This document shows, piece by piece, positions 27,600 to 51,005 of a stretch of DNA of 64,000 nt. Source of the DNA: an uncultured Leptospirales bacterium (GTDB lineage: Bacteria; Spirochaetota; UBA4802; JAKQUI01); NCBI GenBank assembly GCA_964652955.1, contig CAZZCF010000007.1, forward strand, positions 1 through 64,000, given 5' to 3'. The translations under genes were made by a program, and so were the position numbers. Position 1 is the stretch's first letter. Every line of letters starts with the position of its first letter. The notes under the pieces were generated by a model. It did no database searches and had not been told where the DNA came from. It worked only from the letters and a program-made list of their open reading frames with translations.

Positions 27600-30500
27600 A
27601 TGGAAAATAAGAAAATACTCGTTGTCGAAAATGAAATACCTATCGCGCTGCATATCGGCGAAGCACTCAGCAGCAGGGGCGGCTATACCGCGCAAATAGC
27701 CGCAAACGGTGCCGAAGCGCTTGAAATGATATCAGCGGACATGCCTGACCTGGTCATTATGGACATTTTACTCGATGATCAGATGGATGGAATCGAAGCC
27801 TCAGAAATCATAAAAGCACGATACGACATTCCTGTTATTTATATCACCGCAAGCACCGATTACAGCCATTTAAAGCGAGCAATAGAAACAGAACCGTATG
27901 GATATATTATTAAACCGATTGATGAGCTGGAGCTCTCCTGTGCAGTACAGCTGACCCTTCAGAAGCACGAGTCGGAGAAGAAGATAGGTGAGAGCGAGGA
28001 GCGCTACCGATCTCTGTTCGAAGGCGCGAGTGATCATGTCTTCCTGGTAAACAAAGATCTGCAGTATTTCGCCGTAAACCCGAGCGCCCTTCAAGCGGGA
28101 GGTTTTCAACTGGAAGATATAAAAGATAAAGGGCCCCATGAAGTTTTCCACGAGGATGGTGAGTTCTATCTGGCAAAATACCGTAAGGTGTTACAGACAG
28201 GAAAGCCTGATAGATTTGAGCGAGAACTTCGTCTTTCCGACGGCTTTCACTGGTTCTCGGTTATATTAAGTCCCATTCGAGATAAAAAAGGAGACGTTGT
28301 CGGATTGACCGGCATAAGCAGAGACATCACTGAACGGAAAAATGCAGAAGCAATGCTCAGGAGGGGAGAACAGGAAATCCGTATAATCGCCGACAGCGTT
28401 CCCGGCCTGTTTTCATATCTCGATGCAGAAGGCCGGTATCGCTTTGTGAGCAAGCGGTACGAAGAGTGGTTCGGCGTCTCCCGCGAGGAGACAATTGGGA
28501 AGCATTATCGGGAGGTTCTGGGTGAGAACACCTATGAGATAATCAGGGATCACGTCAATGCGGCCCTCTCGGGTAAGCTGGTCCGATACGAGAATGAGCT
28601 CCCCTACAGTAATGGCGGCACGAAGTGGGTAATCGCCGAGTATGTTCCGGATCTCGATGAACAGGGAAACGTCGATGGCTTCTTCGCCCTGGTTATCGAC
28701 ATCACCGAACGGAAGCGGGCGGAAGAGCTGGCTATTGCCCAGCGAGACCTGGGGCTGGCGCTCGGAGAGATGCATGGACTCGACGAGGCGCTGGGGCTCT
28801 GCCTGGAGACAGCCATTCGCATTTCAGGCATGGACAGCGGCGGCATCTACCTCCTTGACGAGCCGTCCGGTGCGTTTGATCTTGTCATTCATCAGGGGCT
28901 GTCGAACTATTTCGTCAGCAGTGCGTCTCACTATGCGCCAGATTCGCCCAATGTGCAGCTCATCATGGCGGGCCGGCCGGTCTACAGTGAACATCAGCAG
29001 TTAAGCGTGCCTCTTAAGACTTTTGAAATGCGCGAGAATTTGAGAGCCATCGCCATACTGCCGGTGCGCCACGAAGATCAAATGACAGCCTGTCTCAATG
29101 TCGCTTCCCATGCCGTAGACGTGGTTCCCAATTGGTCCCGCATCGCGCTTGAAGCGATAGCAGCTCAAATAGGAAGCACCCTTGCCAGCAAGCGTGCGGA
29201 GGAGGCGAAGCGGGAGAGCGAAATGCGGGAGCGGGAGTATATACAAAACCTCGAGTTTCTCTCCCGGACGGCATTTGAGCTTCTTGAATACCCCGCCGAT
29301 GGGAACCACTATGAATTCATCGGAGGGAAACTCAACGAGATAATAAAAAACGCCGTAATCATTATCAATTCATACGATGAAAGCTCCAATACACTCTGCT
29401 GCAGGGACATCAGGGGACTCGGCGGTTTAACCGAAAAGGTTACAGCACTCCTCGGGAAATCACTCGTCGGAATGGTGGTACCGCTCACCATTGATGAGGC
29501 ATGGGAGCGATTGCACACCGGGAGGATAATGGATGGACCCGCGGGCCTTCACGATCTGAGCTTTGGCAAGATACCGAAGCGGACAGCCCGCGCGATTGAG
29601 AAGCTCCTCGGCATTGATCACATTTACGCGATCGGTTTTGTCAGCGAGGGGAAACTGTTCGGTACCGCCATTTTTGTACTGCTCGGAGGTGCAGATCGGA
29701 TATCCTGGAACCCGGTGGAAACCTTCATACACCAGGCGGCCATTGCGCTGCAGCGAAGGCAGGCAGTCTATGCGCTTTCCGAGAGCGAGCGGAAGTACCG
29801 CGATCTGGTCGAGAACATCAGCGATGTCATCTACACGCTCGACGGGAAGGGCATCATAACCTACATAAGTCCCGTTGTGAAGCGTCTGTACGGATACGAT
29901 CCGGACGATATTATAGGGAAGCACTTTACAGACCTTGTATACCCAGAGGATGTGGAGCTCATTGTCGAGGGATTCGAGCGATCGCTGCAGGATATCCATT
30001 TGCCCAATGAATACCGGCTGATAACCCGATCGGGTGAAGTGAGATGGTTTCGCGTATCCGAGAGAACCATCCATGAAGGAGATATGCCAGCAGGTGTTCG
30101 GGGCATTCTGACTGATATCACCGAGAAGAAGCTGGCGGAGGAAAAATTACGCGAGAGCGAGGAGCGTTTTCGTGATATTGTCGAAAATGCCGAGGCCGGT
30201 TACTTTTTCATTGATACGGAAGGATATTACCAATCGGTGAATAAAGCATGGCTGCGCATGTACGGTTACTCCTCTGCCGAAGAGGTCATCGGCAAGCACT
30301 TTTCTATCACCCAGGTAGAGACAGATCTGGAAGAGGCTTTCCAGCTGGGGGAACAGGTATTGCGGGGCGAACCGCTCAATACGAATGAGTTCACCCGGCG
30401 TTGCAAGGATGGATCTGTCGGCTATCACTCCTTCGCATCCCGGCCCGTGGTCAGAGAAGGCAAGGTGGTGGGTATCGAGGGATTCATGACCGATATCACC

Positions 30501-31502
30501 GAACGTAAGCGTATGGAGCAACGGCAGTGCGAGAGCGAGGAGAAAGCAAGGGTTCTGCTCAATGCGCCGATCGGTGCGGTGCTCCTTATTGACAGTGACG
30601 GGAATATTCTCGACGCCAATGAAACCGTGCTCAGGCGAACCAACCGGACCATGGATGAGGTAATCGGCATGTCGGTCTCGGATCTGGTGCCTGAGGAAGT
30701 GGCGCTGTCAAGGAGAGCGCACATTCAACAGGTTATAGATAGCGCAAAGCCTGCGCGTTTTGTGGATTTCCACGACGGCATATGGAACGATATTATGTTG
30801 TATCCAATCTTCGATGCAGACGGGAAGGTAGACAAGATTGCAGCCTTTGGATATGACATCACCGAGAAGAAAACTCTGGAGAAAGAGATTTTGAACATCA
30901 GCGAAAAGGAGCGAAGGCGCATCGGCCAGGAGCTCCACGACGGCCTCGGGCAGCTCCTCACCGGGATAGCATACATCACCGAGGTGCTGAAAGATAAGCT
31001 CGCTGAAAAGGGGTATTCCGAGGTATCGGATGTGAAAAAGATATCAGCGCTCATCGAGGATGCCATCGAGCAGACGCGCGGCCTGGCGCGCGGCCTCTAT
31101 CCGGTGATCTCTGAGCCCTCGGGGATTATCACCGCACTGGAGAGCATGGCGCTGCGAGTTGAGCGGATTTTCGGGATAAGCTGCCGGGTGGAGAGAAGTG
31201 GGAAGATTCGGATTTCCGATAACGCTGTTGCAACAAATCTCTTTTTCATAGCCCAGGAGGCGGTCAACAATGCCATAAAGCACGGGAAGGCTAAGAAAAT
31301 CCGGCTCTGTCTGAACACCGGTAAATCGAAGATCACCATCGCCATTCACGACGACGGAACCGGGTACACACAGGAGAAAAAGGAGGACGCCGGGATGGGA
31401 TTGAGGATTATGCGGTACCGGGCAGAACAGATTGGCGCTGAATTTTCCGGCGTTCCCGGTGAAAATGGCGGCTTTACCGTTACGGTTGCCCTGAAAGCTT
31501 GA
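27600..31502 (+). CDS. Hybrid sensor kinase: N-terminal receiver, multiple PAS domains, GAF, HisKA_3 (NarX-type) dimerisation domain, HATPase_c
   Basis: 1300 aa. REC with acceptor in DLVIMDILL. At least four PAS modules (repeated DITERK linkers), a GAF-like region, an H-box ELHDGLGQLLTG typical of HisKA_3, and a C-terminal GHKL ATPase. Confidence 0.88.
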   Translation: MENKKILVVENEIPIALHIGEALSSRGGYTAQIAANGAEALEMISADMPDLVIMDILLDDQMDGIEASEIIKARYDIPVIYITASTDYSHLKRAIETEPYGYIIKPIDELELSCAVQLTLQKHESEKKIGESEERYRSLFEGASDHVFLVNKDLQYFAVNPSALQAGGFQLEDIKDKGPHEVFHEDGEFYLAKYRKVLQTGKPDRFERELRLSDGFHWFSVILSPIRDKKGDVVGLTGISRDITERKNAEAMLRRGEQEIRIIADSVPGLFSYLDAEGRYRFVSKRYEEWFGVSREETIGKHYREVLGENTYEIIRDHVNAALSGKLVRYENELPYSNGGTKWVIAEYVPDLDEQGNVDGFFALVIDITERKRAEELAIAQRDLGLALGEMHGLDEALGLCLETAIRISGMDSGGIYLLDEPSGAFDLVIHQGLSNYFVSSASHYAPDSPNVQLIMAGRPVYSEHQQLSVPLKTFEMRENLRAIAILPVRHEDQMTACLNVASHAVDVVPNWSRIALEAIAAQIGSTLASKRAEEAKRESEMREREYIQNLEFLSRTAFELLEYPADGNHYEFIGGKLNEIIKNAVIIINSYDESSNTLCCRDIRGLGGLTEKVTALLGKSLVGMVVPLTIDEAWERLHTGRIMDGPAGLHDLSFGKIPKRTARAIEKLLGIDHIYAIGFVSEGKLFGTAIFVLLGGADRISWNPVETFIHQAAIALQRRQAVYALSESERKYRDLVENISDVIYTLDGKGIITYISPVVKRLYGYDPDDIIGKHFTDLVYPEDVELIVEGFERSLQDIHLPNEYRLITRSGEVRWFRVSERTIHEGDMPAGVRGILTDITEKKLAEEKLRESEERFRDIVENAEAGYFFIDTEGYYQSVNKAWLRMYGYSSAEEVIGKHFSITQVETDLEEAFQLGEQVLRGEPLNTNEFTRRCKDGSVGYHSFASRPVVREGKVVGIEGFMTDITERKRMEQRQCESEEKARVLLNAPIGAVLLIDSDGNILDANETVLRRTNRTMDEVIGMSVSDLVPEEVALSRRAHIQQVIDSAKPARFVDFHDGIWNDIMLYPIFDADGKVDKIAAFGYDITEKKTLEKEILNISEKERRRIGQELHDGLGQLLTGIAYITEVLKDKLAEKGYSEVSDVKKISALIEDAIEQTRGLARGLYPVISEPSGIITALESMALRVERIFGISCRVERSGKIRISDNAVATNLFFIAQEAVNNAIKHGKAKKIRLCLNTGKSKITIAIHDDGTGYTQEKKEDAGMGLRIMRYRAEQIGAEFSGVPGENGGFTVTVALKA

Positions 31503-31788
31503 TTCGGGTCAGGATTATTAAACATTAAATATGATGTTTTCCATGATAATAAAACAACCAGTTTCGGTTATTGAAATATTCTATCATTTGCAATATTTAT
31601 TTAATAGTATACTTCATATAGTTATGAGGGATGATTACCGCGACGATGGCCGAACAGTTCGATAATAACACGGTCAATTACGTAATAAGTACATCTTGCT
31701 GTAAAGAGATTCTTTTTCGTCTGTTCGATAAACATGGCCTCACGTTTTATAACACGTACGGAGGTTTCATACTGCAATAGCAAAAAAA

Positions 31789-32478
31789 ATGAAGACAGTT
31801 AATGAAAATGAGAGGGACAATAGAACGGTCAGGATTGTCATTGTCGATGATCATCCCATCGTTCGACAGGGATTAAAAGAACTGATTGAACGTGATAAGG
31901 ATATTCTCGTCTGTGACGATGTCGGGGATACCAAGAGCGCCATCCGGGCTATCGCGAAGCATGAGCCTGACCTCGCTCTCGTCGACATCTCGCTCAACGG
32001 GACCAGCAGCGGCATCGATCTCGTTCGGGCGATTCGAGAGCGATATCCGAAAATCAAAACGCTCGTTCTCTCCATGCACGATGAATCGATATACGCCGAG
32101 CGGGCGATCCGGGCGGGCGCCCGGGGATACATCATGAAAAAGGAGGCGACCAGGAACATCATACAGGCGATCCGGAAGGTGATGGAGGGGGATATATATC
32201 TCAGCGAGGAGATGTCGGGACGGATTATCGACAAGCTCCTCCATGCAGGTCCTGAGGATGTCGATACGCACATAGAAAAACTGAGCAACAAGCAGCTCGA
32301 GGTGTTTCGCCTCATCGGAAGGGGATTCAAGACGGGCGTCATAGCGAAAAAGCTCAATATCAGCGTCAACACGGTTGAATCACATCGACGATATATAAAG
32401 GAGAAGCTGGGACTGAAGAGCTCGGCGGAGCTTACGAGGCTTGCCGTTCAATGGTCGCTCGAAAGTACCGCCGAGTGA
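31789..32478 (+). CDS. NarL/FixJ-family response regulator (REC plus LuxR-type HTH)
   Basis: 229 aa. REC (VDISLNG acceptor) and a C-terminal LuxR HTH (LSNKQLEVFRLIGRGFKTGVIAKKLNISVNTVESHRRYI). Cognate partner for the HisKA_3 kinase upstream. Confidence 0.9.
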   Translation: MKTVNENERDNRTVRIVIVDDHPIVRQGLKELIERDKDILVCDDVGDTKSAIRAIAKHEPDLALVDISLNGTSSGIDLVRAIRERYPKIKTLVLSMHDESIYAERAIRAGARGYIMKKEATRNIIQAIRKVMEGDIYLSEEMSGRIIDKLLHAGPEDVDTHIEKLSNKQLEVFRLIGRGFKTGVIAKKLNISVNTVESHRRYIKEKLGLKSSAELTRLAVQWSLESTAE

Positions 32479-32587: not shown

Positions 32588-32618
32588 GTTCCCCGCCCGC
32601 CGGAGGCGGGCGGGGAAC
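32588..32618 (+). terminator. GC-rich hairpin (14-bp stem, GGAG loop) downstream of the LuxR regulator gene. Likely an intrinsic terminator.
   Basis: gttccccgcccgcc ggag gcgggcggggaac read directly. An AT-rich region with an 11-A run follows. Confidence 0.5.
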
Positions 32619-33044
32619 AATGATTTCATACTTTCTGGACGCCGGTTAGGCCGGCATGTCGAACTAAACAAAAAAAAAAATATAAACATAATTGAATCCA
32701 TCATAACAATATCACTACTATCGGCCATTGACATGATGGAAACAAACAATTATTCATTATATATGTATCAAGGTAACAGGTGAGGTGATCTACCGTTTCG
32801 ACACAGGGGAGAAGAGCTCTGATAAGAATGCGGATAGTGAGTTCTCTGTGTCAAGGAGTGCTCATATAAATAAACGCGGTGAACCTCCGAATTTTATGAG
32901 CTTACCTATGACAACGGAATTGTACAGAAAACGAAAATCATCTAATGGTCATGCATACCTGTGGTGTTGCATCCGTTAAATATAAAGCACATCCGGTCAT
33001 TGCAGAGAGCGGTACCGGAAAATTTAAGGGAGGATTATAATCGC

Positions 33045-33989
33045 ATGAATGAAAGCAAAGAGCATCTGAAAAAGAAAGTAGCAGTACTCGATGCTGTCAA
33101 CAGGGTTTTCAGGGAGGCGCTCCTCTGCGAAACGGAGGAGGAGGTTGCCAAGCAGTGCCTCGCGGTCGCCGAGGAGCTGACCGGGAGCAGGTTCGGTTAT
33201 ATCGGAGAGCTGAACGCTGCCGGTCTCTTCGACACCATCGCATTGAGCGATCCGGGATGGGGAGCGTGCAGAATGTCAGAAACAAATAAAGTTACTCTCA
33301 TCTATAACATGGAGATACGGGGCATATGGGGCCGGGTTCTACAAGATGGAAAATCGCTCATCGTCAACGAGCCGGCTTCACATCCCGACAGCACCGGCGT
33401 CCCCGAAGGACATCCGCCCCTGACAGCTTTTCTGGGAGTGCCATTGAAGCAGGTCGATAAGACGACCGGGATGATAGCCCTGGCGAACCGTGAGGGGGGC
33501 TATACTGATGCCGATCGCGAGGCAATCGAGGCTCTCTCGGTCGCCTTTGTGGAGGCCATACGAAGCAAACGGACCGAGCTCACCGTAAAGCAGCTCGCCC
33601 AAGAGATACTGGAGCTCTCCACACCGGTGATGCAGATATGGGATGGGGTGGTGGTGGCGCCGCTCATCGGCACCCTGGACATCGAGCGGACGCAGCAGTT
33701 CATGGAGCGACTCCTGAATGCCATTGTGGAGACGAAGTCTCCGGTCGCACTGATCGACATCACCGGTGTGCCGACCATCGACACGCAGACCGGGCAGCAT
33801 CTCATCGAAGCGATATCGGCTGCAAAGCTTCTGGGAACCGAAGTGGTGCTCACCGGCGTGAGTCCTGTTATTGCGCAGACGCTAGTGCACCTGGGCATCG
33901 ATCTCTCGGACTTCATCACCAGGTCGTCCCTCTCGGCGGGGGTGCGCGTGGCGCTGGATGCTTTGAATCTGCGTGTGGTCAGTAAATGA
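33045..33989 (+). CDS. RsbR-like stressosome sensor paralog 1: N-terminal GAF domain plus C-terminal STAS domain
   Basis: Start chosen at MNESKEHLKK (GGAGG RBS upstream). ORF track starts at 32961. The C-terminal 120 aa (ELSTPVMQIWDGVVVAPLIGTLD...IDITGVPTIDTQTGQHLIEA) matches the RsbR STAS domain. The N-terminal half is GAF-like. Confidence 0.78.
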   Translation: MNESKEHLKKKVAVLDAVNRVFREALLCETEEEVAKQCLAVAEELTGSRFGYIGELNAAGLFDTIALSDPGWGACRMSETNKVTLIYNMEIRGIWGRVLQDGKSLIVNEPASHPDSTGVPEGHPPLTAFLGVPLKQVDKTTGMIALANREGGYTDADREAIEALSVAFVEAIRSKRTELTVKQLAQEILELSTPVMQIWDGVVVAPLIGTLDIERTQQFMERLLNAIVETKSPVALIDITGVPTIDTQTGQHLIEAISAAKLLGTEVVLTGVSPVIAQTLVHLGIDLSDFITRSSLSAGVRVALDALNLRVVSK

Positions 33990-34043
33990 AGATATTACCT
34001 CTCGTGAGGTATACCTATCCGGAAACCATTTAAGGAGAATGAA

Positions 34044-34991
34044 ATGGCACAGAGGAAAAAAGATGACGGGAGAGCGCCGGGAAGCGAGTTCCTGTACCGC
34101 ACGCTTATAAACAACCTCCCCCAGAAGATATTCTACAAGGACAAGAATTCAGGGTACGTATCCTGCAACGAGAGCTTTGCAAAGGATTTAGGGATTACCC
34201 CGAGTGAGTTCGCCGGGAAGACCGATTTCGACTTCTTCCCGAAGGAACTGGCGGAGAAGTACCGCACCGACGACCTGCGTATCATGGAGGCCGGTAAAAT
34301 AGAAGAGATTGACGAGAGCTATTTGAAGGATGGAGAGGAGTTCTTCGTCCATACGGTCAAAGTGCCCATCAGAGACGTGGATGGTGAGATCGCGGGCATT
34401 CTCGGCATCTTCTGGGATGCCACCGCTAAAAAGCGTGATGAGGAGGAGCTGCAGCGGTACAAGGAACAGCTCGAGGAGATGGTGAAGGAGCGAACTGCAG
34501 AATTGCATCAAGCGAACGAGCGCCTCGAGGGGGAGATTGCCGAGGGGAAGCGGCGCGAGGAGATAATCGCGCAGCAGTCGCAGGAGATACTGGAGCTCTC
34601 AACGCCGGTACTGAAGATATGGGAGGGAGTTGTGGCGGCGCCGCTCATCGGCACCCTGGACAGCAATCGGACGCAGCAGTTCATGGACGTCTTTCTCAAC
34701 TCAATTGTGGCAAACAATGCACCGGTCGCACTCATCGACATCACCGGGGTGCCCACCATCGATACGCAGACCGGGCAGCACCTCATCGAGGCGATATCGG
34801 CGGCACGCCTCCTTGGCACCGAGGTGATTCTCACCGGGGTGCGGCCCGCCATCGCACAGACGCTGGTGCATCTGGGAATCGATCTCTCCGAGTTCAGAAC
34901 CTGCTCGTCCCTCTCCTCGGGCCTGAGCATGGCGCTGGAGACGCTCAACCGGGAGGTCATATCAAGAGATGACATACAAGGAGATCTGTAA
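34044..34991 (+). CDS. RsbR-like stressosome sensor paralog 2: PAS domain, coiled-coil linker, STAS domain
   Basis: 315 aa. PAS-like N-domain (FYKDKNSGYVSCNESFAKDLG), coiled-coil, then an RsbR-type STAS (ELSTPVLKIWEGVVAAPLIGTLD...). AAGGAG RBS. Confidence 0.8.
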   Translation: MAQRKKDDGRAPGSEFLYRTLINNLPQKIFYKDKNSGYVSCNESFAKDLGITPSEFAGKTDFDFFPKELAEKYRTDDLRIMEAGKIEEIDESYLKDGEEFFVHTVKVPIRDVDGEIAGILGIFWDATAKKRDEEELQRYKEQLEEMVKERTAELHQANERLEGEIAEGKRREEIIAQQSQEILELSTPVLKIWEGVVAAPLIGTLDSNRTQQFMDVFLNSIVANNAPVALIDITGVPTIDTQTGQHLIEAISAARLLGTEVILTGVRPAIAQTLVHLGIDLSEFRTCSSLSSGLSMALETLNREVISRDDIQGDL

Positions 34992-35161
34992 TGGGAGCTG
35001 AAAATATATCGGTCATTAAGATGGGAGATACGCTCATGGTTACGGTTCCGGCCGATCCGGACGACGAGACGGTATTCGCGCTGCAGGAGCGGATTCTCGC
35101 GGCAATGGAGAAGCAAGAGGTGAAGGAGCTTGAGGATTGCATTGTTGAAGATCTTCATTGA
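34991..35161 (+). pseudogene. Truncated duplicate of rsbS (first about 40 aa of the STAS protein, then diverges and stops)
   Basis: TAATG overlap with the paralog-2 stop. Encodes MGAENISVIKMGDTLMVTVPADPDDETV..., identical to the N-terminus of the intact RsbS at 36219, then out-of-family sequence and a stop after 56 aa. Confidence 0.6.
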
Positions 35162-35226
35162 GGTAAATGATTCAACTGTAATTTGATAATAATATTCGAA
35201 GATGTATTAAATTATAGGAGTATGGC

Positions 35227-36219
35227 ATGAGCAATGAGAGGAAAACAAAAAAAAAGCTTATCGAAGAACTGGAGGGACTGCGCGGCAAAATAACTGAACT
35301 CGAAGGGGCTATGTCTGAAGAAGAACCGATGTTACGTCGCGAACAGGATTTGATAGAGCTGAACAGGATGATGATATCGGCTTCAACGTTCGGTATTATC
35401 GTGTATAAGGCTTCCGGACAATGTGTTATTGCAAACGAAACGGCAGCCAAATCCATCGGTGCAACCAGAGAACAGGTGTTGCAGCAAAACTTTTACCATA
35501 TAGAATCATGGGAAAAGAGCGGTTTGCTTGAGGCAGCGAAAGGAGCACTCAAAGATGGATCGGATAAGAAGATTGAAATACATACTATTTCAACATTTGG
35601 GAAGGATATCTGGTTGGGATGCCGTTTTACTCCGTTTGTATACCTTGATGAACAATACCTCATGCTCATTTTTGAAAATATTACCGACCGGATTATCGTT
35701 TCACAGGAGCTGCAAAGAACCCGTGACGAACTGAAGGAGAAAAACGAGAAACTCGAGAAGGAGATATCAGAGGGCAGAAAACGAGAGGAGATAATAAGAC
35801 GGCAGCATCAGGAAATACTGGAGCTCTCAACACCTGTCATGAAAATCTGTGAGGGCGTGGTGGCGGCGCCTCTCATCGGCACACTGGACAGCCAGCGGAC
35901 GCAGCAGTTCATGGATGTCTTTCTCAATGCCATTGTTGATAACAACGCGCCGGTTGCTCTGGTGGATATCACCGGAGTTCCCACCATCGATACGCAGACC
36001 GGCCAGCATCTCATCGAGGCCATATCGGCGGCGCGCCTCCTGGGAACCGAGGTGATTCTCACCGGAGTGCGGCCCGCCATCGCGCAGACCCTGGTGCATC
36101 TCGGAATCGATCTCTCAGATCTCAGGACCTGCTCCTCCCTATCGGCAGGGCTGAGCATGGCGCTGAGGACGCTCAACCGGGAGGTCATATCAAGAGATGA
36201 CATACAAGGAGATCTGTAA
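35227..36219 (+). CDS. RsbR-like stressosome sensor paralog 3: PAS domain, coiled-coil, STAS domain
   Basis: 330 aa. PAS N-domain. The C-terminal STAS is nearly identical to paralog 2 (ELSTPVMKICEGVVAAPLIGTLD...NREVISRDDIQGDL). Confidence 0.8.
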   Translation: MSNERKTKKKLIEELEGLRGKITELEGAMSEEEPMLRREQDLIELNRMMISASTFGIIVYKASGQCVIANETAAKSIGATREQVLQQNFYHIESWEKSGLLEAAKGALKDGSDKKIEIHTISTFGKDIWLGCRFTPFVYLDEQYLMLIFENITDRIIVSQELQRTRDELKEKNEKLEKEISEGRKREEIIRRQHQEILELSTPVMKICEGVVAAPLIGTLDSQRTQQFMDVFLNAIVDNNAPVALVDITGVPTIDTQTGQHLIEAISAARLLGTEVILTGVRPAIAQTLVHLGIDLSDLRTCSSLSAGLSMALRTLNREVISRDDIQGDL

Positions 36220-36599
36220 TGGGAGCTGAAAATATATCGGTCATTAAGATGGGAGATACGCTCATGGTTACGGTTCCGGCCGATCCGGACGACGAGACGG
36301 TATCCGCGCTGCAGGAGCGGATTCTCGCGGCAATGGAGAAGCACGAGGCCAAGGGATTGATACTTGACTTATCCACCGTCGAGACGATGGATTCCTTTTT
36401 CGCGCGGATTGTGGCCGAGACCGCACAGATGGTTCAGCTCATGGGCGGCCGGACGGTGATCGCGGGGATGCGGGCGAGCGTTGCCATCACCACCACGCAG
36501 CTGGGGCTGACCCTGGGGAATGCCATGACCGCCCTCGACGTGGACTGGGCGCTCCTGATGCTCGTCAGGAAACCGGCCGGAGGCATTGGGGATGAATGA
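36219..36599 (+). CDS. rsbS: RsbS-like single-STAS anti-sigma-factor antagonist (stressosome scaffold)
   Basis: 126-aa STAS-only protein with the conserved phosphorylatable region (LILDLSTVETMDS). Translationally coupled (TAATG) to the preceding rsbR paralog. Confidence 0.82.
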   Translation: MGAENISVIKMGDTLMVTVPADPDDETVSALQERILAAMEKHEAKGLILDLSTVETMDSFFARIVAETAQMVQLMGGRTVIAGMRASVAITTTQLGLTLGNAMTALDVDWALLMLVRKPAGGIGDE

Positions 36600-37008
36600 C
36601 AACGAAAATCCGATTGGCGAGGTTCCAATTCAGAACGAGGGCGATATCGTATCGGCCCGTAAGGTCGCGAGAGAGGTGTCGCAAAAGCTCGGATTCGGCG
36701 TCACCGATGTCACCCGAATCGTGACTGCGGTCTCGGAGCTGGCGCGAAATATCTACCGCTTTGCCGGAACGGGGATAATGCGCTGGAGTGTCATGAACGA
36801 GGGTATTGTCGGTATTGAGCTCATATTCGAGGACAAGGGACCCGGCATCACCGATATTGAACAGGCTATGGGCTTGGGATTCACCAGCGGGCAGGGACTG
36901 GGGATGGGGCTTCCCGGAGCCAGGCGGCTCATGGATGAGCTGGAGATCGAGTCGCGGGTGGGAGTCGGCACCACGGTGACGGTGCGAAAGTGGCTCAAGA
37001 GAAAATAA
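36586..37008 (+). CDS. rsbT: RsbT-like GHKL serine kinase (switch protein)
   Basis: 140 aa. N-box SELARNIYRFAG, G1 DKGPGI, G2 GLGMGLPG. Overlaps the rsbS 3' end as in rsbRST operons. Confidence 0.82.
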   Translation: MGMNDNENPIGEVPIQNEGDIVSARKVAREVSQKLGFGVTDVTRIVTAVSELARNIYRFAGTGIMRWSVMNEGIVGIELIFEDKGPGITDIEQAMGLGFTSGQGLGMGLPGARRLMDELEIESRVGVGTTVTVRKWLKRK

Positions 37009-37009
37009 C

Positions 37010-38023
37010 GTGATTGATTCGGAACATTCCATACCGGTAACGCACACAGGCGATGTGAACAGAGCGCGCACGGCAGCAAGGGAAGCAGCCGTGAATATCG
37101 GTTTTGCCGAGAAGGAGGGGGAGGAGATCGCCCTGGTGACAAGCGAGCTCGCCACCAACCTCTGCAAGCATGCGAGGGGCGGCGTTCTGATCATCTCGGC
37201 AATCGGGGAAGGAACGAAGCGGGGGATTCAGGTTGAAACGTCCGACCGGGGGCCGGGAATAGCCGATGTCGACGATGCAATGACCAACGGCTTTTCCACA
37301 ACGGGGAGCCTCGGGTACGGGATTGGAACGGTTATCAGGCTCATGGATGAGGTTGCTGTCAGTTCCCTGGAGAAGGATGCCGGCACGAGGGTGATCTGCA
37401 AAAGATGGGTTCGCGATATGAGTGACGGGGTAAAGAGATGTCCGCTCGATTTCGGCGTTGCAATCCGTCCCCGTCCGGGGAGCAGCCTTAACGGCGATGC
37501 GTATGTAATCAGGAAGTGGAACGATTGTGCACTGGTCGGACTCATCGACGGTCTCGGGCACGGACAGTTTGCTCATCGTGCATCGCAGACGGCAAAGAAG
37601 TACATCGAGAGGCATTTCGAACAGCCGCTGCAGAATCTCTTTCTCGGGACGGCGCGGCAGTGCCGGTCAACGCGGGGAGTGGTGATGGCGCTTGCCCGTT
37701 TCGACTGGGAAGCAAAGCGGCTCACCTTCGCGAGCGTGGGGAATGTCGAGGTGCGGGTAGTAAATAGCCACGAGAAGTTTTCTTTTATTCAGCGGCGTGG
37801 CGTCATCGGTCTCAATGCGCCCGCTCCGGCGGTTACCGAGCACCGGTGGGAGGAGCACTATATTATGATTATGCATACGGATGGATTGAGAACGCGATGG
37901 CAGTGGAAGGATTTTCCGGAGCTCGTCGAGCAATCGGCAACCGAAGCAGCGCGTTTGTTTCTCCATAAGCTTGCAAAGGATATTGACGACGCAGCGGTTC
38001 TGGTGGTGAAGAGGAGAATATGA
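37010..38023 (+). CDS. Fusion protein: RsbW/RsbT-like GHKL kinase domain plus PP2C (SpoIIE-type) serine phosphatase domain
   Basis: 337 aa, GTG start. N-terminal GHKL motifs (SELATNLCKHARGG, DRGPGI, GYGIG). C-terminal PP2C metal-binding Asp motifs (GDAYVI, DGLGHG, MHTDGL). Confidence 0.78.
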   Translation: MIDSEHSIPVTHTGDVNRARTAAREAAVNIGFAEKEGEEIALVTSELATNLCKHARGGVLIISAIGEGTKRGIQVETSDRGPGIADVDDAMTNGFSTTGSLGYGIGTVIRLMDEVAVSSLEKDAGTRVICKRWVRDMSDGVKRCPLDFGVAIRPRPGSSLNGDAYVIRKWNDCALVGLIDGLGHGQFAHRASQTAKKYIERHFEQPLQNLFLGTARQCRSTRGVVMALARFDWEAKRLTFASVGNVEVRVVNSHEKFSFIQRRGVIGLNAPAPAVTEHRWEEHYIMIMHTDGLRTRWQWKDFPELVEQSATEAARLFLHKLAKDIDDAAVLVVKRRI

Positions 38024-38880
38024 AACAGGAGGAATTGCAGAAAAAGCTTGATAAGGCCTTGAGAACAATTCAGTCGCTTCAAGGTGAGCTCAGAGAGACC
38101 AATCAGGGCGTCATAGCACTCAACCTTGAGCTGGAGCAGCGGGTTGAGGAGAAGGAGAGGGCGGAGGAAGCGCTCCAGGATGCAAACAAGGAGCTCGAAG
38201 CCTTCAGCTACTCGGTATCGCATGACCTCCGGGCGCCGCTGCGTGCCATTGACGGCTTCGCCAATATACTCCTCGAGGAGTACAATGATGTGCTCGATGA
38301 TGAGGGGAAACGATTAATCGGTATAATTATGAAAAACGTCAATTCGATGGGGCAGCTCATCGACGATCTCCTGGCTTTCTCCCGGTTGAGCCGTCAGCAG
38401 ATGCAGCGTTTGGTGATAGACGTGCGACCGCTGGTTCAGGAGGTTGTCGACAATCTCATGCAGAGTGAAAATAACCGAAATATCGAATGGAAGATCGACG
38501 CGCTCCCCCCGGTGATCGGCGATCGCTCCATGATCCGGCAGGTCTACGCCAATCTCCTCTCCAACGCGATCAAGTTCACCCGGAAGCGGGATATCGCCCG
38601 CATCGAGGTGGGAGCACGTAAATGTGATGAGGAGATTGTCTATTTTGTACGGGATAACGGTGCGGGATTCGATATGCAGTATCAAGAGAAGCTCTTTGTC
38701 GTTTTCCAGCGGCTGCACAGCGAGAAGGATTTCGAGGGGACCGGTGTCGGTATGGCCAACGTCAGGCGCATCGTTCACCGGCACGGGGGACGGATCTGGG
38801 CGGAGGGGAAGGTCGGCGAGGGCGCGACTTTTTATTTTACCATTCCACCCGAGGAGGGAACCGATGAAATATCCCGATGA
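38020..38880 (+). CDS. Soluble histidine kinase (N-terminal coiled-coil, HisKA, HATPase_c). No sensor domain.
   Basis: 286 aa. About 60-aa coiled-coil, then H-box SHDLRAPL and GHKL motifs (DNGAGFD, GTGVGMA). ATGA overlap with the upstream gene. Confidence 0.85.
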   Translation: MKQEELQKKLDKALRTIQSLQGELRETNQGVIALNLELEQRVEEKERAEEALQDANKELEAFSYSVSHDLRAPLRAIDGFANILLEEYNDVLDDEGKRLIGIIMKNVNSMGQLIDDLLAFSRLSRQQMQRLVIDVRPLVQEVVDNLMQSENNRNIEWKIDALPPVIGDRSMIRQVYANLLSNAIKFTRKRDIARIEVGARKCDEEIVYFVRDNGAGFDMQYQEKLFVVFQRLHSEKDFEGTGVGMANVRRIVHRHGGRIWAEGKVGEGATFYFTIPPEEGTDEISR

Positions 38881-39396
38881 AGTTGGGAGTCTCCCCGTCG
38901 AAGTCCTGACCGGCGAGGTCAAAGTCGCCGCTGTTGGAGTCCTCCGCGCCAGCGCGTTGGGTTCATGCGTTGCGGTTGCGATGCTCGATGTTGAGGCCGG
39001 GATCGGCGGTCTTGCGCACGTGATGCTGCCGGGGTCCTCACCCGGTTACCGGGATGCAAAAGGAACGAAGTACGCCGAGGACGGGATACGCGAATTGATT
39101 CACTCCATGACGGCGCAGGGTGCGCGGCTCGAAAGTCTCGTGGCCTGTGTGTTGTCGGCGGCGGCAACATCCTCGAGCGTTATGACGACACGATCTGCGA
39201 GGCGAATATCAGGTCGGTTACCAAGGTTCTCGCAGGGATGGGCATTCGGATAATGGCCTGCGAGGTGGGTGGCTCCCAACGAAGGAGCGTTTCCCTCGAC
39301 GTGGAGTCCGCTCGTGTTTCCTGCACGGTCGGGGACTCGGCCTCGAAGCTGCTATGGCAAGGCCGGGGCGAGCGAGAGGAGGATGTCAACTCATGA
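38864..39396 (+). pseudogene. cheD: cheD (chemoreceptor glutamine deamidase) with an apparent single-base frameshift near 39148-39155
   Basis: Starts at MKYPDEV (GAGGAGG RBS) with the CheD core LGSCVAVAMLD...GGLAHVMLPG. After ...LVACV the reading frame shifts. The conserved continuation VGGGNILERYDD...ACEVGGSQRRSVSLDVESARV runs in the other frame to a TGA overlapping the next gene's ATG. Confidence 0.65.
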
Positions 39397-42092
39397 AGCG
39401 AAGGACAAAAGCGGATATACAACGAGAGAAGGGAGAGTTCCGCCAGCGCAGCACCGAACTGGAGTGCTCGGAGGACGGTACGTCGGAGAGCGGCAAGCTG
39501 GCGGCGGAGGTGAAAATCAAGGAAGCCCAGTATCGCGGGGTATTCGAGGCATCGAAAGACACTATCCTCATTTTCGATCTCGACGGCGTGATCAAAGAGG
39601 TCAATCCCGCCGCCTGCGACATGTATGGCTACTCGCACGGGGAGATGGTCGGACTCACCGGGAGGGACATTGTGCATCACGACTATCACCACTTGTTCAA
39701 GGAATTCGTTGCGAAAGCAGGGGCGGGCGAGCTGTTTGCCGCCGAGTCGGTTGATCTTCGGAAAGACGGTTCACAATTTGACATAGAGGTCAGAGGAAGT
39801 GGTTTCGAGTATATGGGCCGCCCTCATCTTCTCGCCATCGTTCGTGACATCACTGAGCGCAAGCAGATGGCGAAGGGCCTCCGGCGCATGGCGACGGTGG
39901 TGAGAGACTCCAACGACGCGATCACGATCCAGGACTTCGAGGGTAGGATCACGGACTGGAACCACGGCGCCGAGCTGATGTACGGCTATTCTGAGGAAGA
40001 GGCGTTCCAGTCGAACATCGATCGTCTGACGATTCCCGCCAAGGTTGCAGAGCAGAATGCTTTCATCCAACGGTTGGCGGCGGGCGAAGACGTCACGTCG
40101 TTCGAGACCCAGCGGGTGACCAAGGACGGGCGCGTCCTCGATGTCTGGATGACCGTCACCAAGCTGATGGACGATGCCGGCAAGCCGATTGGCCTGGCCT
40201 CCACCGAGCGCGACATCACCGAGCGCAAGCGGGCCGAGGCGGCGCGCGACGCTGCCTACCAGCAGCTCCTTAAGGCGGAACGAGATCTCTCAATCAGAAA
40301 CAAGATCAACGAGATATGCCTGACCATATCCGACGAGGAGATGTACGGCGAGATTCTGAAGGTCGTCTTGGAGCAGTTGAAGAGCAAGTACGGGACCTTT
40401 GGATGCCTCGAAGAGGACGGCTCACTGGTCGTCCCTTCCATGACCAGGGACGTCTGGGATCAATGCCGAGTTCCGCAAAAGGACATTATCTTCCCAAGAG
40501 ACAAATGGGGAAACAGCATCTGGTGCCGGGCGATCCTGGAGAAGAAGACCCTTCATTCAAATGAGCCGTCATACGTTCCAGAAGGGCACATCCCCATCCT
40601 TCGCAACATATCTGTACCCATCACATATGAGGGCAAAGCAATCGGCCTGTTCCAGGTCGCCAACAAGGATGCGGATTACGACGAAAACGACATCCAGATT
40701 CTCGAAACTATCGCCGGATTCGTAGCGCCGGTTCTAAATGCCAGGCTGCAAAGAGACAGGGAACTGCGGGAGCGCGAAAGAGCCGAAGAAGCGCTCAAGG
40801 CGTCAAACCAACAACTGGTGGCCAGCGAGCAGCAGCTCCGAGCAGCAAATCAGCAATTAGATGCCGGCAACCAGCAGCTCAGGGCCACCGAGCAGCAGCT
40901 TCGCGCGTCGAATCAGCAACTGGAGGCGAGCAATCAGCAGCTCCGGGCAACCGAGCGAGAGCTTCGGCAAAGCGAGCAGTTCATCAGGGCGGTGTTGGAC
41001 AACCTTCCTGTCGGCGTCGCTGTGAACTCGGTAGATCCCGCCGTGGCGTTCAGCTATATGAACGACAGCTTCCCAAGGATATACCGCACCACCAGAGAGG
41101 CGCTCGCCGACCGGGATGCCTTCTGGGAGGCGGTATATGAAGACCCCGTGTTCCGGGCGGAGATCAGGAAGAGGGTGCTGGAGGACTGCGCAAGCGGAGA
41201 CCCGGGAAGCATGAGATGGGAAGACGTCCCGATAACGCGCGAGGGGCAGGAGACTTCCTTCATTTTCGCGCGCAACATACCGGTTGCCGGAAAGGACCTG
41301 GCGATATCCATGGTATGGGATGTGACCGAGCGCAAGCGCGCGGAGGAAGAGCTCAGAAGACACCGCGATAATCTCGAAGAGCTGGTCGCGGAGCGCACCG
41401 TAGAGCTCGAGGCCTTCAGCTACTCGGTATCGCATGATCTCCGGACGCCGCTGCGGGCCATCGACGGCTTCGCAAATATTCTCCTCGAGGAGCACAACGA
41501 TGCGCTCGAAGAAGAGGGAAAACGGCTGCTCGGCATTATAATGAAGAATGTCAATTCAATGGGACAGCTCATCGACGATCTCCTGTCCTTCTCCCGGCTG
41601 GGCCGGCAGGAGATGAAGCGTATGGAGATTGACGTGCGGGCGCTGGTTCGGGAGGTTATCGACAATCTCATGCAGAGTGAGAATAATCGTAATATCGAAT
41701 GGAAGATCGACACGCTCCCTTCAATGATCGGCGATCGCTCGATGATACGGCAGGTCTACGCCAATCTCCTCTCCAACGCGATCAAGTTCACCCGGAAGCG
41801 GGATGCCGCGCGCGTCGAGGTAAGTTCCCGGGAGATCGACGAAGCAATTGTCTATTTCGTGCGGGATAACGGCGCTGGCTTCGATATGCAGTACGCGGAG
41901 AAGCTCTTCGGCGTCTTCCAGCGGCTGCACAGCGAGAAGGAGTTCGAGGGGACCGGGGTCGGCCTTGCCAATGTCAGGCGCATCGTTCACCGGCACGGGG
42001 GCAGGATCTGGGCCGAGGGGAAGGTCGGCGAGGGCGCGACTTTTTATTTTACCATTATGCATGAGGAGGGAACCGATGAAATATCCCGATGA
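39393..42092 (+). CDS. Cytoplasmic multi-sensor histidine kinase: PAS-PAS-GAF, heptad-repeat coiled-coil, PAS, HisKA, HATPase_c
   Basis: Start chosen at MKRRTKAD (AGGAGG RBS; track ORF starts at 39354). Two PAS (DITERK linkers), a GAF-like block, eight 7-aa repeats (A-x-N/E-Q-Q-L-R), a further PAS, and a kinase core paralogous to 38020..38880. Confidence 0.85.
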
Positions 42093-42519
42093 AGTCGAGA
42101 TTCTTCTCGTCGAGGACAAGGAGGAGGACGTGGAGCTCACTCTGCGGGCGCTGCGAAAGAACAACCTGGCGAACCGGGTGCACGTGGTTTCGGACGGCCA
42201 GGAGGCGATTGATTTCATCTTTGGGAAGGGAGCATACAGTGGGAGAGATATCAACCATACACCGAGGGTTATTCTCCTCGACCTGAAGCTTCCCAGGGTG
42301 AGCGGCCTTGAGGTGCTTCAGAGGATCAAGTCTGATGAACGGACAAAGGTGATACCGGTGGTGATGCTCACCTCCTCCAAAGAAGAGCAGGATATCGTCG
42401 AGAGCTACCGGCTGGGGGTGAACAGCTACATCGTCAAGCCGGTGAGCTTCAACGATTTCGTGAAGGCGGTTACCGACCTGGGCCTGTACTGGATGCTGCT
42501 CAATAAGCCGGCATTCTAG
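42076..42519 (+). CDS. Single-domain response regulator (REC only)
   Basis: 147 aa. Starts [18 protein letters not shown]. Acceptor in VILLDLKLP. Conserved K in IVKP. Overlaps the kinase 3' end. Confidence 0.82.
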
Positions 42520-42529
42520 GAATGTAAAT

Positions 42530-43936
42530 ATGATGAGCGAAGCAGCAAGAGATCTGCATATACTGATGCTCGAGGACAGCGAGGCCGACGCCGAGCTCAT
42601 AATCAATGAGATGCGAAAGGGCGCTCTCGCCTTTACGTACCAAAGGGTGGAGACGCGGGAGAAGTATCTCGCGGCAATTGAAAAGTATATGCCCGACATG
42701 ATTCTCTCGGACAACAGCCTTCCCGCTTTCGACGGCCTGTCGGCGCTCAGTATTGCGCAGGAAAAATGCCCCGAGGTCCCCTTCATCTTCGTCTCCGGGA
42801 CCATCGGCGAGGAGGTGGCCATAGAAACGCTGAAAGCCGGCGCGACCGATTACGTCATCAAGGACAGGCTCTCGCGGCTTGTTCCGGTAATAGAACGAGC
42901 ACTGAGGGAGGTGGAGGAGCGGCGGGAGAAGAGGCGGGCCGAGCAGCTCCTTTTGGAGAGCGAAAAGCGGTACCGGAGCCTCTACGAGGATGCGCCCATC
43001 GCCTACTTCACCATCGGCAGTGATCGCTCCATACGGCAGGCGAACAGCGCGGCAACTAGGCTTCTCGGCTATTCGAAGGACGAGCTTCTCCGTATGGAAT
43101 TATTTGATCTCTATTCCGACAATCCCGAGGGATTGTCCCGGGCGCGGAGCCACTTCGAGCGGTTTCTCCGGGGAGAGAATATCGACGACGAGGAGCTCAT
43201 GATGCGGAAAAGCGACGGCGAGCCGGTCTGGGTGAGCCTCGCCGTCCGTCCCGTCAGGGACGATCGGGGAGCCGTCGTGGAATCCCGATCCATGGCCATC
43301 GATATCACCGATCGGAAGCTGGCGCAGGAAGAGCTGGCAAAGAGCTTTGTCAAGCTCCGGAAGACCCTGAACGACACCATTTACGCCATGGCGCTCACCA
43401 TCGAGTCGCGGGACGCCTACACCGCCGGGCATCAGCAGAGGGTGGCCCATCTCGCGTGCGCCATTGCGGAGGAGCTGGGCATGCCGGCCGAGCAGATTGA
43501 GGGACTGCACATGGGCGCCATTGTCCACGATATCGGCAAGATCTCCATTCCCGCGCAGATTCTGAGCAAGCCGGGGAAGCTTCTCAAGGAGGAGTTCGAG
43601 ATAATTATCACCCACCCGCAGCAGGGATATGACATTCTCAAGGGGATTGATTTCCCCTGGCCGGTTGCGGAGATGGTGCTTCAGCATCACGAGCGGATAA
43701 ACGGCACCGGTTATCCCGGCGGGCTCAGGGATGGGGAAATACTCATTGAATCGAAGATACTCGCCGTCGCCGATGTGGTCGAGGCGATGTCCTCTCATCG
43801 TCCGTATCGTCCCAGCGTGGGTATCGTGAACGCCCTCGGGTACATTCAGATGAACAGCGGCGTTCTCTTTGATGCAGGAGTGGTCGGAGCCTGTGAGACT
43901 GTTTTCGAAAAGGGATTTGAATTTGAGGAGGGATAA
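42530..43936 (+). CDS. Response regulator with PAS and HD-GYP (c-di-GMP phosphodiesterase) domains
   Basis: 468 aa. REC (DMILSDNSLP), PAS, and HD-GYP with an intact HD (HQQRVAHL, VHDIGK) and GYP (HHERINGTGYPGGL). Confidence 0.85.
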   Translation: MMSEAARDLHILMLEDSEADAELIINEMRKGALAFTYQRVETREKYLAAIEKYMPDMILSDNSLPAFDGLSALSIAQEKCPEVPFIFVSGTIGEEVAIETLKAGATDYVIKDRLSRLVPVIERALREVEERREKRRAEQLLLESEKRYRSLYEDAPIAYFTIGSDRSIRQANSAATRLLGYSKDELLRMELFDLYSDNPEGLSRARSHFERFLRGENIDDEELMMRKSDGEPVWVSLAVRPVRDDRGAVVESRSMAIDITDRKLAQEELAKSFVKLRKTLNDTIYAMALTIESRDAYTAGHQQRVAHLACAIAEELGMPAEQIEGLHMGAIVHDIGKISIPAQILSKPGKLLKEEFEIIITHPQQGYDILKGIDFPWPVAEMVLQHHERINGTGYPGGLRDGEILIESKILAVADVVEAMSSHRPYRPSVGIVNALGYIQMNSGVLFDAGVVGACETVFEKGFEFEEG

Positions 43937-50616: not shown

Positions 50617-50624
50617 TCGGGAAG

Positions 50625-50996: not shown

Positions 50997-51005
50997 GGAC
51001 ACATT

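Follow-up and report, generated by a model that had tools for sequence, protein, structure and literature searches.

The stretch of DNA analyzed here (the window, i.e., positions 1 to 64,000 of contig CAZZCF010000007.1 in assembly GCA_964652955.1 of an uncultured Leptospirales bacterium) carries stressosome-type genes next to genes of a two-component system. Between 33045 and 43936, the genes form a tightly packed string on one strand and are gapless or overlapping. This region most probably (with a rough probability of 0.7) encodes a minimal stressosome with a two-component output via HK286, a sensor-less histidine kinase of 286 residues, while cheD and HK899, a large sensor kinase of 899 residues, would represent a separate module that was spliced into the string. 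The finding is carried by the stressosome-specific similarity of the encoded proteins, by the conservation of the kinase behind the stressosome genes in related loci, and by the duplications that flank the cheD-HK899 module.

Stressosome genes of the window

Domain annotation of the open reading frames (ORFs) of the window with Pfam and NCBIfam profiles bore out the genes and domains listed by a first-pass annotation of this DNA, namely three RsbR proteins with GAF or PAS domains, RsbS, RsbT, a GHKL-PP2C fusion, a soluble histidine kinase, and a PAS-GAF kinase. The features given here and below between 32589 and 55982 lie on the plus strand. RsbR1 (33045-33989) is a GAF-STAS protein (GAF_2 2.5e-23 and STAS 3e-14 with Pfam). 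While its ORF is open from a GTG at 32961, where the start had first been placed, the likely start is the ATG at 33045, which is preceded by a GGGAGG ribosome-binding site and was also used by the gene call in an independent assembly (L090). RsbR2 (34044-34991; PAS_4 9e-19, STAS 1e-10) and RsbR3 (35227-36219; STAS 3e-10, PAS_9 3e-7) are PAS-STAS proteins by Pfam. They are followed by RsbS (36219-36599), which consists of a single STAS domain, and by RsbT (36592-37008), a GHKL serine kinase of 138 residues (HATPase_c_2 1.5e-10) whose gene overlaps the end of rsbS. The next gene encodes a fusion of a HATPase_c_2 domain (residues 1-135) with a SpoIIE/PP2C domain (residues 146-337), termed T'-RsbX fusion here (37010-38023), and is followed by HK286 (38020-38880; HisKA 7e-14, HATPase_c 5e-25), which is made up of an N-terminal helix, DHp, and CA and whose start overlaps the stop codon of the fusion.

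The solved relatives of RsbS at E<=0.001 were RsbS proteins only, followed by STAS domains of RsbR proteins. The RsbS structures of Listeria, B. subtilis, Moorella (MtS), and V. vulnificus were matched with 2e-21, 2e-18, 6e-15, and 7e-11, respectively, and Ser59 in the motif MDSF aligns with the known phosphorylated serine. Over its linker and STAS domain, RsbR2 matched the RsbR proteins of Listeria (6e-32) and V. vulnificus (2e-27). All three RsbRs matched RsbR STAS domains and show the layout of a variable N-terminal sensor and a C-terminal STAS domain. The threonine of the second phosphorylation site (IDTQ) is kept in each of them (Thr247 in RsbR1, Thr241 in RsbR2, and Thr256 in RsbR3), while the first site is a serine in RsbR2 (Ser207) and RsbR3 (Ser222) but an isoleucine in RsbR1 (Ile213). 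Since these similarities are specific to stressosome proteins, with RsbS and RsbR structures closest, the STAS proteins are not the generic SpoIIAA-like antagonists that the first-pass annotation had weighed against their assignment. The relatives of RsbT by profile and sequence were of the SpoIIAB type, and neither an RsbT-specific curated model nor a solved RsbT structure was matched. RsbT is 50% identical to a sequence that we take to be that of B. subtilis RsbT, which serves as a lead only. Proteins of the RsbR type, an RsbS with its serine, RsbT after rsbS, and an RsbX-type PP2C are thus all present, and, judged by its sequence, the gene set is a true cassette of the stressosome type, whose output is two-component and c-di-GMP-degrading. 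The possibility that the RsbRs are LOV photoreceptors was rejected, as the YtvA model matched only the linker and the STAS domain and the NCRFL flavin motif occurred in none of them.

The PP2C half of the T'-RsbX fusion is closest to MtX of Moorella (3zt9, 5e-18) and RsbX of B. subtilis (3w40, 4e-10). In an AlphaFold model of the fusion (predicted local distance difference test 87.7, predicted template modeling score 0.82), this half reached template modeling (TM) scores of 0.93 to MtX 3zt9 and 0.82 to RsbX 3w40, and the N-terminal domain reached 0.74 to SpoIIAB. Residues 1-135 are an RsbT paralog with 36% identity to the RsbT of the window. The ATP-binding residues of the N-box, G1, and G2 as well as the metal-binding aspartates and the RsbX-type GN motif of the PP2C half are invariant among 17 homologs. 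The fusion family is large, with more than 4000 matches among 8000 candidates scored and 716 clusters at 50% identity (E<=1e-30), nearly all of which are 335-350 residues long and match from end to end. Its members are named ‘ATP-binding SpoIIE family protein phosphatase’ at NCBI. No published description of an RsbT'-RsbX fusion was found; a mention in Pane-Farre 2005 or Quin 2012 is possible.

Conservation of the cassette across related loci

The neighborhood of the fusion was compared across 78 non-redundant loci with a fusion homolog, which were obtained from one scan of species-representative genomes and from contig look-ups. Directly upstream of the fusion, RsbR, RsbS, and RsbT occurred in 74, 75, and 73 of the 78 loci, respectively. 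The first gene 3' of the fusion was a histidine kinase in 59 of the 73 loci with enough downstream sequence, and the start of this kinase usually overlaps the stop codon of the fusion by 4 nt. The hosts of the cassette belong to Acidobacteriota, Verrucomicrobiota, Planctomycetota, Cyanobacteria, Bacteroidota, Actinomycetota, Methylococcaceae, and Chloroflexota, with further occurrences in metagenome-assembled genomes (MAGs) of the Desulfobacterota type (sulfate-reducer type) and in the archaeon ‘Candidatus Methanoperedens’. As the kinase holds its position in so many phyla, its link to the stressosome genes is no chance adjacency, and the coupling of stressosome to kinase is well supported. 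The conserved neighborhood that the first-pass annotation had proposed to look for was hence found for the histidine kinase.

In two loci, the protein encoded after the fusion starts with an RsbU_N domain. In a Bipolaricaulota MAG (L037, 9062-10861) it is an RsbU_N-GAF-HD-GYP protein, and in ‘Candidatus Methanoperedens’ (L038, 11382-13565) it combines RsbU_N with three GAF domains and HisKA. Since RsbU_N is a known docking domain for RsbT, these loci mark the position after the fusion as that of an RsbT target, and they show that the fusion cassette also occurs with the classical docking domain, including in an archaeon. In Streptomyces-type loci (L065, L069, L075, L082, and L084), the protein after the fusion consists of the N-terminal motif described below, a GAF domain, and a PP2C domain.

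The closest relative of the cassette (L001) has a fusion with 76% identity to that of the window. Its HK286 ortholog is directly followed by the receiver ortholog (148 residues) and by a REC-PAS-HD-GYP protein, without cheD and the large kinase in between. A fixed receiver partner across all cassettes was considered and rejected, because the gene 3' of the kinase varies by locus.

Cassettes with several RsbRs are rare and were found in 3 of the 78 loci. In a Hydrogenedentota MAG (L014, 5739-9580), several GAF or PAS RsbRs lie ahead of RsbS, RsbT, the fusion, and a histidine kinase, and the first two of them resemble RsbR1 and RsbR2 of the window. A Dehalococcoidales MAG (L008, 9247-10117) has two tandem RsbT-like genes between rsbS and the fusion gene.

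HK286 and a shared segment of output proteins

The boxes of class I histidine kinases are invariant in the alignment of HK286 (H68, N178/N182, D212-G214-G216, F229, and G240-G242-G244). Ahead of them, HK286 carries a motif resembling a signaling helix (S-helix) at residues 20-41 (LQGELRETNQGVIALNLELEQR; 38077-38142), which emerged from the alignment of the downstream kinases. The segment LQxELxxTNxG[VL]xALxxELExR is common to 12 sensor-less downstream kinases with identities to HK286 down to 26%, among which L20, E23, T27, N28, E37, and L38 (HK286 numbering) are invariant. As a regular expression, the motif was matched in 36 of 59 first-downstream histidine kinases compared to 6 of 37 other histidine kinases of those loci (Fisher p=1.8e-5). 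Of these six other kinases, four or five in fact represent the first true kinase behind the fusion or are neighbors with an RsbT-like domain.

In the more distant cassettes, the first protein after the fusion has a third RsbT-like HATPase_c_2 domain ahead of the motif (TNRGVVALYAELD), which is sometimes duplicated in tandem, and ends in a HisKA-HATPase_c-REC part (L051, L053-L056, L059, L063, L066-L068, L076, L080, L081, L083, and L086). The motif is also shared between kinase and PP2C outputs at the same position after the fusion, including the GAF-PP2C proteins of the Streptomyces type. A profile of 41 residues built from the motif and run against a set of 5.8 billion proteins returned only fragments of up to 72 residues without domain context, and is thus uninformative on the distribution of the motif. 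No description of the N-terminal motif of output kinases was found in the literature searched, and a mention in Pane-Farre 2005 or Quin 2012 is again possible.

In most near relatives, an ERT signature lies 17 residues after the invariant asparagine of the motif. As the motif runs into this signature, it resembles an S-helix (PMC1592074), an element that nearly always sits between two signaling domains (PMC1592074). By analogy, an RsbT-type domain would act in trans as the upstream domain that HK286 lacks, which would match the action of RsbT on RsbU, which takes place through the RsbU N-domain and stiffens the coiled-coil linker, a mechanism whose extension to kinases was proposed by the authors of that work (PMC12143880).

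The cheD-HK899 module

Between HK286 and HK899 (39393-42092), the sequence of cheD is present from 38864 as listed before, but it is interrupted by a deletion of 1 nt near 39150, so that cheD (38864-39396) is a pseudogene in two frames, one at 38864-39253 and another at about 39142-39396. By alignment with the intact family, the deletion falls into the conserved LVAC-V-GGGN stretch, and the frameshift takes away the C-terminal third of the conserved fold. The truncated product of 129 residues scored 24.3 against the Pfam CheD cut-off of 25, and an intact CheD fold is thus lacking. The repaired CheD, in which Cys35 and His52 are present, scored 71 bits with Pfam and matched CheD of T. maritima (1.4e-21). 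The frameshift is identical in the window and in two further assemblies (L090 and L091), which differ from the window by one single-nucleotide polymorphism in 21 kb, and an assembly accident is therefore unlikely. The ATG of HK899 overlaps the stop codon of cheD (ATGA).

None of the other 77 of the 78 stressosome-type loci contains cheD, and none of 86 cheD loci has an RsbS, RsbT, or fusion gene nearby. The wiring of cheD to the stressosome, which the first-pass annotation had claimed, did not hold: cheD is frameshifted, takes its first seven codons from the receiver gene, and forms a separate module with HK899 that is not part of the stressosome wiring, just as its relatives belong to CheD and PAS-kinase modules of their own.

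HK899 combines two PAS domains, a GAF domain, glutamine heptads, and a third PAS domain (Pfam) with a kinase core copied from HK286. The heptads follow A[SAGT][NE]QQLxA and occur seven times in tandem at residues 470-519 (40800-40949). They correspond to the amidated form of the methylation consensus of chemoreceptors, whose modification sites are spaced seven residues apart (PMC1079850) and of which particular glutamines are deamidated by CheD (PMC3513319). The closest intact CheD homologs (57-70% identity) are encoded directly 5' of cytoplasmic PAS/GAF kinases in all four contexts that were read. Genes of chemoreceptors, CheA, CheW, or CheC adjoin cheD neither in the window nor in the four homolog contexts, and a single gene of a methyl-accepting chemotaxis protein lies 21 kb upstream of cheD in the window. 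Counted as QQxxA[ST], heptads occur seven times in HK899 and 5, 6, and 3 times in the cheD-adjacent kinases of L088, L093, and L095, respectively.

A metagenome scan with the alignment of this CheD subfamily added 80 loci (L097-L176). Among the proteins of at least 300 residues encoded directly 3' of cheD, 42 of 46 carried at least three and up to 12 heptad-spaced consensus sites. The background in the stressosome loci was 1 in 1045 ORFs of that size and 1 in 91 kinases, and the sole match was HK899 itself. PAS, HATPase_c, and DHp domains were found in 29, 23, and 25 of 36 cheD-downstream proteins scanned, and the DHp domains belonged to three different families. HK286 has no heptad consensus site. 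The pairing of this CheD subfamily with PAS kinases suggests that two-component kinases may undergo a deamidation, perhaps also a methylation, in the manner of chemoreceptors. No description of a CheD-histidine kinase pairing or of the glutamine heptads was found in the literature searched.

Partial duplications within the locus

The segments 38191-38901 and 41403-42113 share 86.2% identity and contain the kinase cores of HK286 and HK899, in each case the DHp-CA part from the H-box onward, along with 21 nt from the start of the gene behind it. The two blocks flank 2.5 kb of unrelated DNA with the body of cheD and the PAS-PAS-GAF-PAS sensor. Because the block carries the first 21 nt of the following gene, cheD opens with the first seven codons of the receiver gene, and MKYPDEV is the N-terminus of both the cheD product and the receiver. 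This single-domain receiver of 147 residues (42076-42519; Response_reg 2.7e-20) follows HK899 and had been overlooked in the first-pass annotation, as had the RsbS remnant described below. The core copies are 82.4 and 81.7% identical to L001, which is lower than the 86.2% between them, and the duplication must therefore have arisen in the lineage of the window. From this pattern, it was evidently through a partial duplication of the HK286 core that cheD and the PAS-GAF sensor came to lie between HK286 and its receiver. HK286 and HK899 are nearly identical in their DHp helices, with few differing positions, and by the logic of specificity residues both kinases should serve the same receiver, so that the 147-residue protein is likely the partner of the two.

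A second pair of blocks (34515-35126 and 35743-36354; 86.9% identical) contains the 3' half of an rsbR gene and the first 135 nt of rsbS. The blocks flank 616 nt that encode the new PAS N-terminus of RsbR3, the C-terminal half of which was duplicated from RsbR2. An ORF of 56 residues at 34991-35161, within the block 34515-35126, is nearly identical to RsbS over its first ~45 residues (phmmer score 77) and was also called as a gene in L090. It is evidently the 5' end of rsbS left over from a partial tandem duplication. The STAS region of RsbR1 is an older copy with 79-81% identity. The two partial duplications are of similar age (86.9 and 86.2%), and each flanks DNA for a new sensor half. More than once, the locus has hence retained the output part of a protein (STAS or DHp-CA) and joined it to another sensor part.

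Signaling island and remaining window

The receiver is followed by a REC-PAS-HD-GYP protein (42533-43936; HD_5 1e-34), and the gene order from the receiver region to this protein is the same in L001. The remaining island (44154-55982; Pfam and motif check) is collinear with L001 up to 50809. It encodes a REC-PAS-GAF-PAS-HisKA_2 kinase, a REC-PAS-HD-GYP protein, two REC-PAS kinases, a REC-STAS protein, a REC protein with a degenerate HD-GYP domain, and an EAL protein. The HD and GYP motifs are intact at 42533-43936 and 46856-48247, and the EAL protein keeps the EAL and DDFG motifs. The REC protein at 53365-54537 lacks the HD dyad and has GFP in place of GYP, and probably serves as a sensor of c-di-GMP or as an adaptor, without catalysis. 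The c-di-GMP network that had been proposed is degradative only, as Pfam and motif check found HD-GYP and EAL domains but no GGDEF domain in the downstream island.

The statement that a sigma-B set is absent holds for the window only, and within it for the ORFs scanned. No sigma factor, RsbU, RsbV, or RsbW occurred among the scanned ORFs of at least 150 residues, a set that leaves out the ORFs 62809-63828 and 63147-63623 and all shorter ones (RsbV has ~110 and RsbW ~160 residues). The REC-STAS protein (52496-53290) has an asparagine (INNIG) at the position of the phosphorylatable serine of anti-sigma antagonists. It may connect the phosphorelay with a partner switch, but no partner kinase or sigma factor for it was found in the window.

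Directly 5' of the stressosome operon, a kinase of 1300 residues (REC, five PAS, GAF, and HisKA_3) and a NarL-type regulator are encoded (27600-32478). A GC-rich hairpin read from the sequence at 32589-32619, between the regulator gene and rsbR1, is the probable end of the preceding transcription unit, and it is separated from rsbR1 by an AT-rich spacer. The terminator scan missed this hairpin because no T-run follows it. Overall, the promoter and terminator scan of the window performed no better than on shuffled sequence, and no RNA family was matched in an Rfam scan of the window.

Outside the island, the window contains genes of nitrogen assimilation, transport, and other signaling. A nitrogen-assimilation cluster at 351-16007 comprises an ammonium transporter, glutamine synthetase, an SPFH protein, P-II, the large and small chains of carbamoyl-phosphate synthase, and the large and small subunits of glutamate synthase. 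The methyl-accepting chemotaxis protein is encoded at 16214-17935 and a 7TMR-DISM histidine kinase at 18967-21057 on the minus strand. Three ORFs of 570, 338, and 390 residues (21323-23035, 58742-59758, and 61402-62574) had no Pfam match at E<=1e-5.

Proposed mechanism and alternative explanations

From homology and gene order, the following course of signaling is proposed. RsbR1 with its GAF domain, RsbR2 and RsbR3 with their PAS domains, and RsbS would form a STAS core, in stressosomes a pseudo-icosahedral assembly of ~1.8 MDa, at which the serine kinase RsbT is held. Upon a signal to the GAF or PAS domains, RsbT would phosphorylate Ser59 of RsbS and the serine and threonine sites of the RsbRs and leave the core, and the RsbX-type PP2C would reset the complex, with the fused second RsbT-like domain docking the phosphatase on the STAS core. 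The output would be HK286. A free RsbT-type domain is predicted to bind its N-terminal signaling-helix-like segment, by analogy with RsbT on the RsbU N-domain and coiled-coil linker, and to change the autophosphorylation of HK286. This may in turn alter the phosphorylation of the 147-residue receiver and of the REC-PAS-HD-GYP c-di-GMP phosphodiesterases. HK899, with its copied DHp-CA core, would address the same receiver as HK286.

Several observations weigh against this mechanism. HK286 has no RsbU_N domain by Pfam, the motif as defined is absent in 23 of 59 first-downstream kinases, and the ERT signature is degenerate in HK286 (EEK) and L001 (EEQ). The gene behind the kinase differs between loci, the docking role given to the fused RsbT-like domain is conjectural, and an interaction between VvRsbT and the kinase VvD1 was not detected in the Vibrio system (Heinz et al., PMC9237108). 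The REC-STAS protein at 52496-53290 or sigma factors outside the window could also provide a partner-switch output. The REC-STAS protein and the missing RsbU_N docking domain, together with the downstream GAF-PP2C proteins of the Streptomyces-type loci, which are typical of partner switches, would fit a generic STAS/GHKL/PP2C partner switch that forms no stressosome particle and has its target elsewhere than in the neighboring kinase, such as in the REC-STAS protein or in a sigma/anti-sigma pair beyond the window. Such a switch is improbable given that the RsbR and RsbS similarities are to stressosome proteins instead of SpoIIAA or RsbV, that 59 of 73 loci have a kinase right behind the fusion, usually with overlapping stop and start codons, that HK and PP2C outputs have the motif in common, and that RsbU_N marks the post-fusion gene in two loci.

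The contact between RsbT and HK286 might also be of another kind, in that RsbT or the fused RsbT-like domain phosphorylates HK286 at the invariant Thr27 instead of binding to it. Thr27-Asn28 is invariant in all 12 kinases of the alignment and across 32 motif segments, both GHKL domains (RsbT and fusion) keep their ATP-binding residues, and, according to PMC4976288, the RsbT homolog of Moorella reportedly phosphorylates the diguanylate cyclase that is its target. Known substrates of RsbT are STAS domains, however, and the asparagine of the motif fits the conserved asparagine at the ‘a’ position of signaling helices (PMC1592074), so that the conservation may be purely structural. Phosphorylation is thus considered unlikely, though less so than the generic partner switch. 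Less credible than either, and largely refuted, is a functional cheD that acts within the stressosome output by modifying HK286 or HK899. Its position between two kinases, the ATGA overlap as a sign of translational coupling to HK899, the retention of Cys35 and His52 in the truncated product, and the seven QQxxA[ST] heptads of HK899 would speak for it. Against this stand the loss of the C-terminal third in three assemblies alike, the separation of cheD from stressosome genes in both locus sets, and the lack of a consensus site in HK286. A minimal stressosome with output through HK286 and a separate, spliced-in cheD-HK899 module therefore remains the preferred explanation.

A broader interpretation that joins both modules is put forward tentatively and is rather doubtful as a whole. 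Its first part holds that the outputs of these cassettes (mostly kinases, and PP2C proteins in Streptomyces-type loci) start with the motif or carry it after an extra RsbT-like domain, and that E-L-x-x-T-N-x-G-V-x-A-L-x-x-E-L-E/D would be a control site, by docking or as phospho-acceptor, for RsbT-type domains. The CheD subfamily would be dedicated to PAS kinases with 3 to 12 heptads, and the two systems would have been fused here by duplication to converge on one receiver. If true, the motif would explain stressosome signaling without RsbU, a standing question for the many bacteria with neither RsbU nor sigma B. The cassette is fixed in its architecture and its output kinases begin with a short conserved motif, and HK286, sensor-less and of 286 residues, would be a very simple test object.

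Comparison with known systems

As in the stressosomes of B. subtilis and Listeria, several RsbR paralogs share one STAS core in the window, RsbT and RsbX are homologous, and the Ser59 of RsbS and the threonine site of RsbR are conserved. These systems differ from the window by the RsbU-RsbV-RsbW-sigma B set, of which none was found among the scanned ORFs, and by a non-heme globin sensor in place of GAF and PAS domains. In the window, RsbX is also encoded right behind RsbT, as part of a fusion with a kinase-like domain, unlike in B. subtilis and Listeria. OsaC of Streptomyces coelicolor is a kinase-phosphatase fusion of a partner-switching system that acts on a sigma-factor switch. Rv1364c of M. 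tuberculosis (3ke6), which was among the fold matches of the window fusion, likewise joins an RsbW/RsbT-type GHKL domain and a PP2C domain in one polypeptide. Its domain order (PAS-PP2C-kinase-STAS) and context are different, and while fusions of this type act on sigma-factor switches, the fusion of the window adjoins RsbR, RsbS, RsbT, and a histidine kinase.

Stressosome modules with two-component and c-di-GMP outputs have already been described (PMC9237108, PMC10014275, PMC10436020, and, through them, Pane-Farre 2005 and Quin 2012). The MtR-MtS-MtT-MtX-MtG system of Moorella thermoacetica (2vy9, 3zt9; Quin et al. 2012, as cited in PMC4976288 and PMC12143880) provides RsbS and RsbX homologs among the closest solved relatives and, like the window, has a c-di-GMP output and no sigma factor. 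According to the same citations, its output is a diguanylate cyclase with RsbU_N and thus serves synthesis, whereas the kinase of the window would feed HD-GYP proteins and thus degradation. MtX is a single-domain protein in contrast to the fused RsbX of the window.

The closest match in wiring is V. vulnificus, where rsbRSTX has a two-component output that probably degrades c-di-GMP (PMC9237108, PMC10014275, PMC10436020). In both VvRsbR-S-T-X with VvD1 and VvD2 and the window, the order is rsbRSTX with rsbX right behind rsbT, sigma B is missing, and a histidine kinase without RsbU_N is followed by a receiver-containing protein of the c-di-GMP phosphodiesterase type. This arrangement, in which a kinase and a receiver-containing output come straight after rsbRSTX, is thus present in the window and conserved in related loci. 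While V. vulnificus has one RsbR with a heme globin sensor, the window has three with GAF and PAS sensors, and the single-domain PP2C of Vibrio RsbX (PMC9237108) compares to a fusion with a second RsbT-like domain. VvD1, compared here by its description, has a PAS domain, whereas HK286 is sensor-less and starts with the conserved helix motif. The alternative-output wiring proposed by the first-pass annotation is accordingly retained as a two-component and c-di-GMP coupling, but, as wiring of this kind was already described for V. vulnificus, it is less novel than had been held. What goes beyond the searchable literature is the RsbT'-RsbX fusion as a fixed and very widespread feature, the motif of the output proteins, the history of duplication and splicing, and the CheD-kinase module.

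For the CheD-kinase module, the nearest parallel is B. cereus, where RsbM, a CheR-type enzyme, methylates the S-helix of the kinase RsbK (PMC4574943). There too, a chemotaxis-type modification enzyme is encoded beside a histidine kinase with a modified signaling helix, but RsbM is a methyltransferase, while the module of the window has CheD of the deamidase family. Chemoreceptors (PMC3513319, PMC1079850) share the heptad spacing and the consensus with HK899 and its relatives, which adjoin a CheD-family gene. The sites of the HK899 type, known from sequence alone, are set apart from both RsbK-RsbM and chemoreceptors by their Gln-Gln pairs in arrays of 3 to 12, and, if confirmed, the module would extend covalent adaptation of the chemotaxis type to ordinary two-component kinases.

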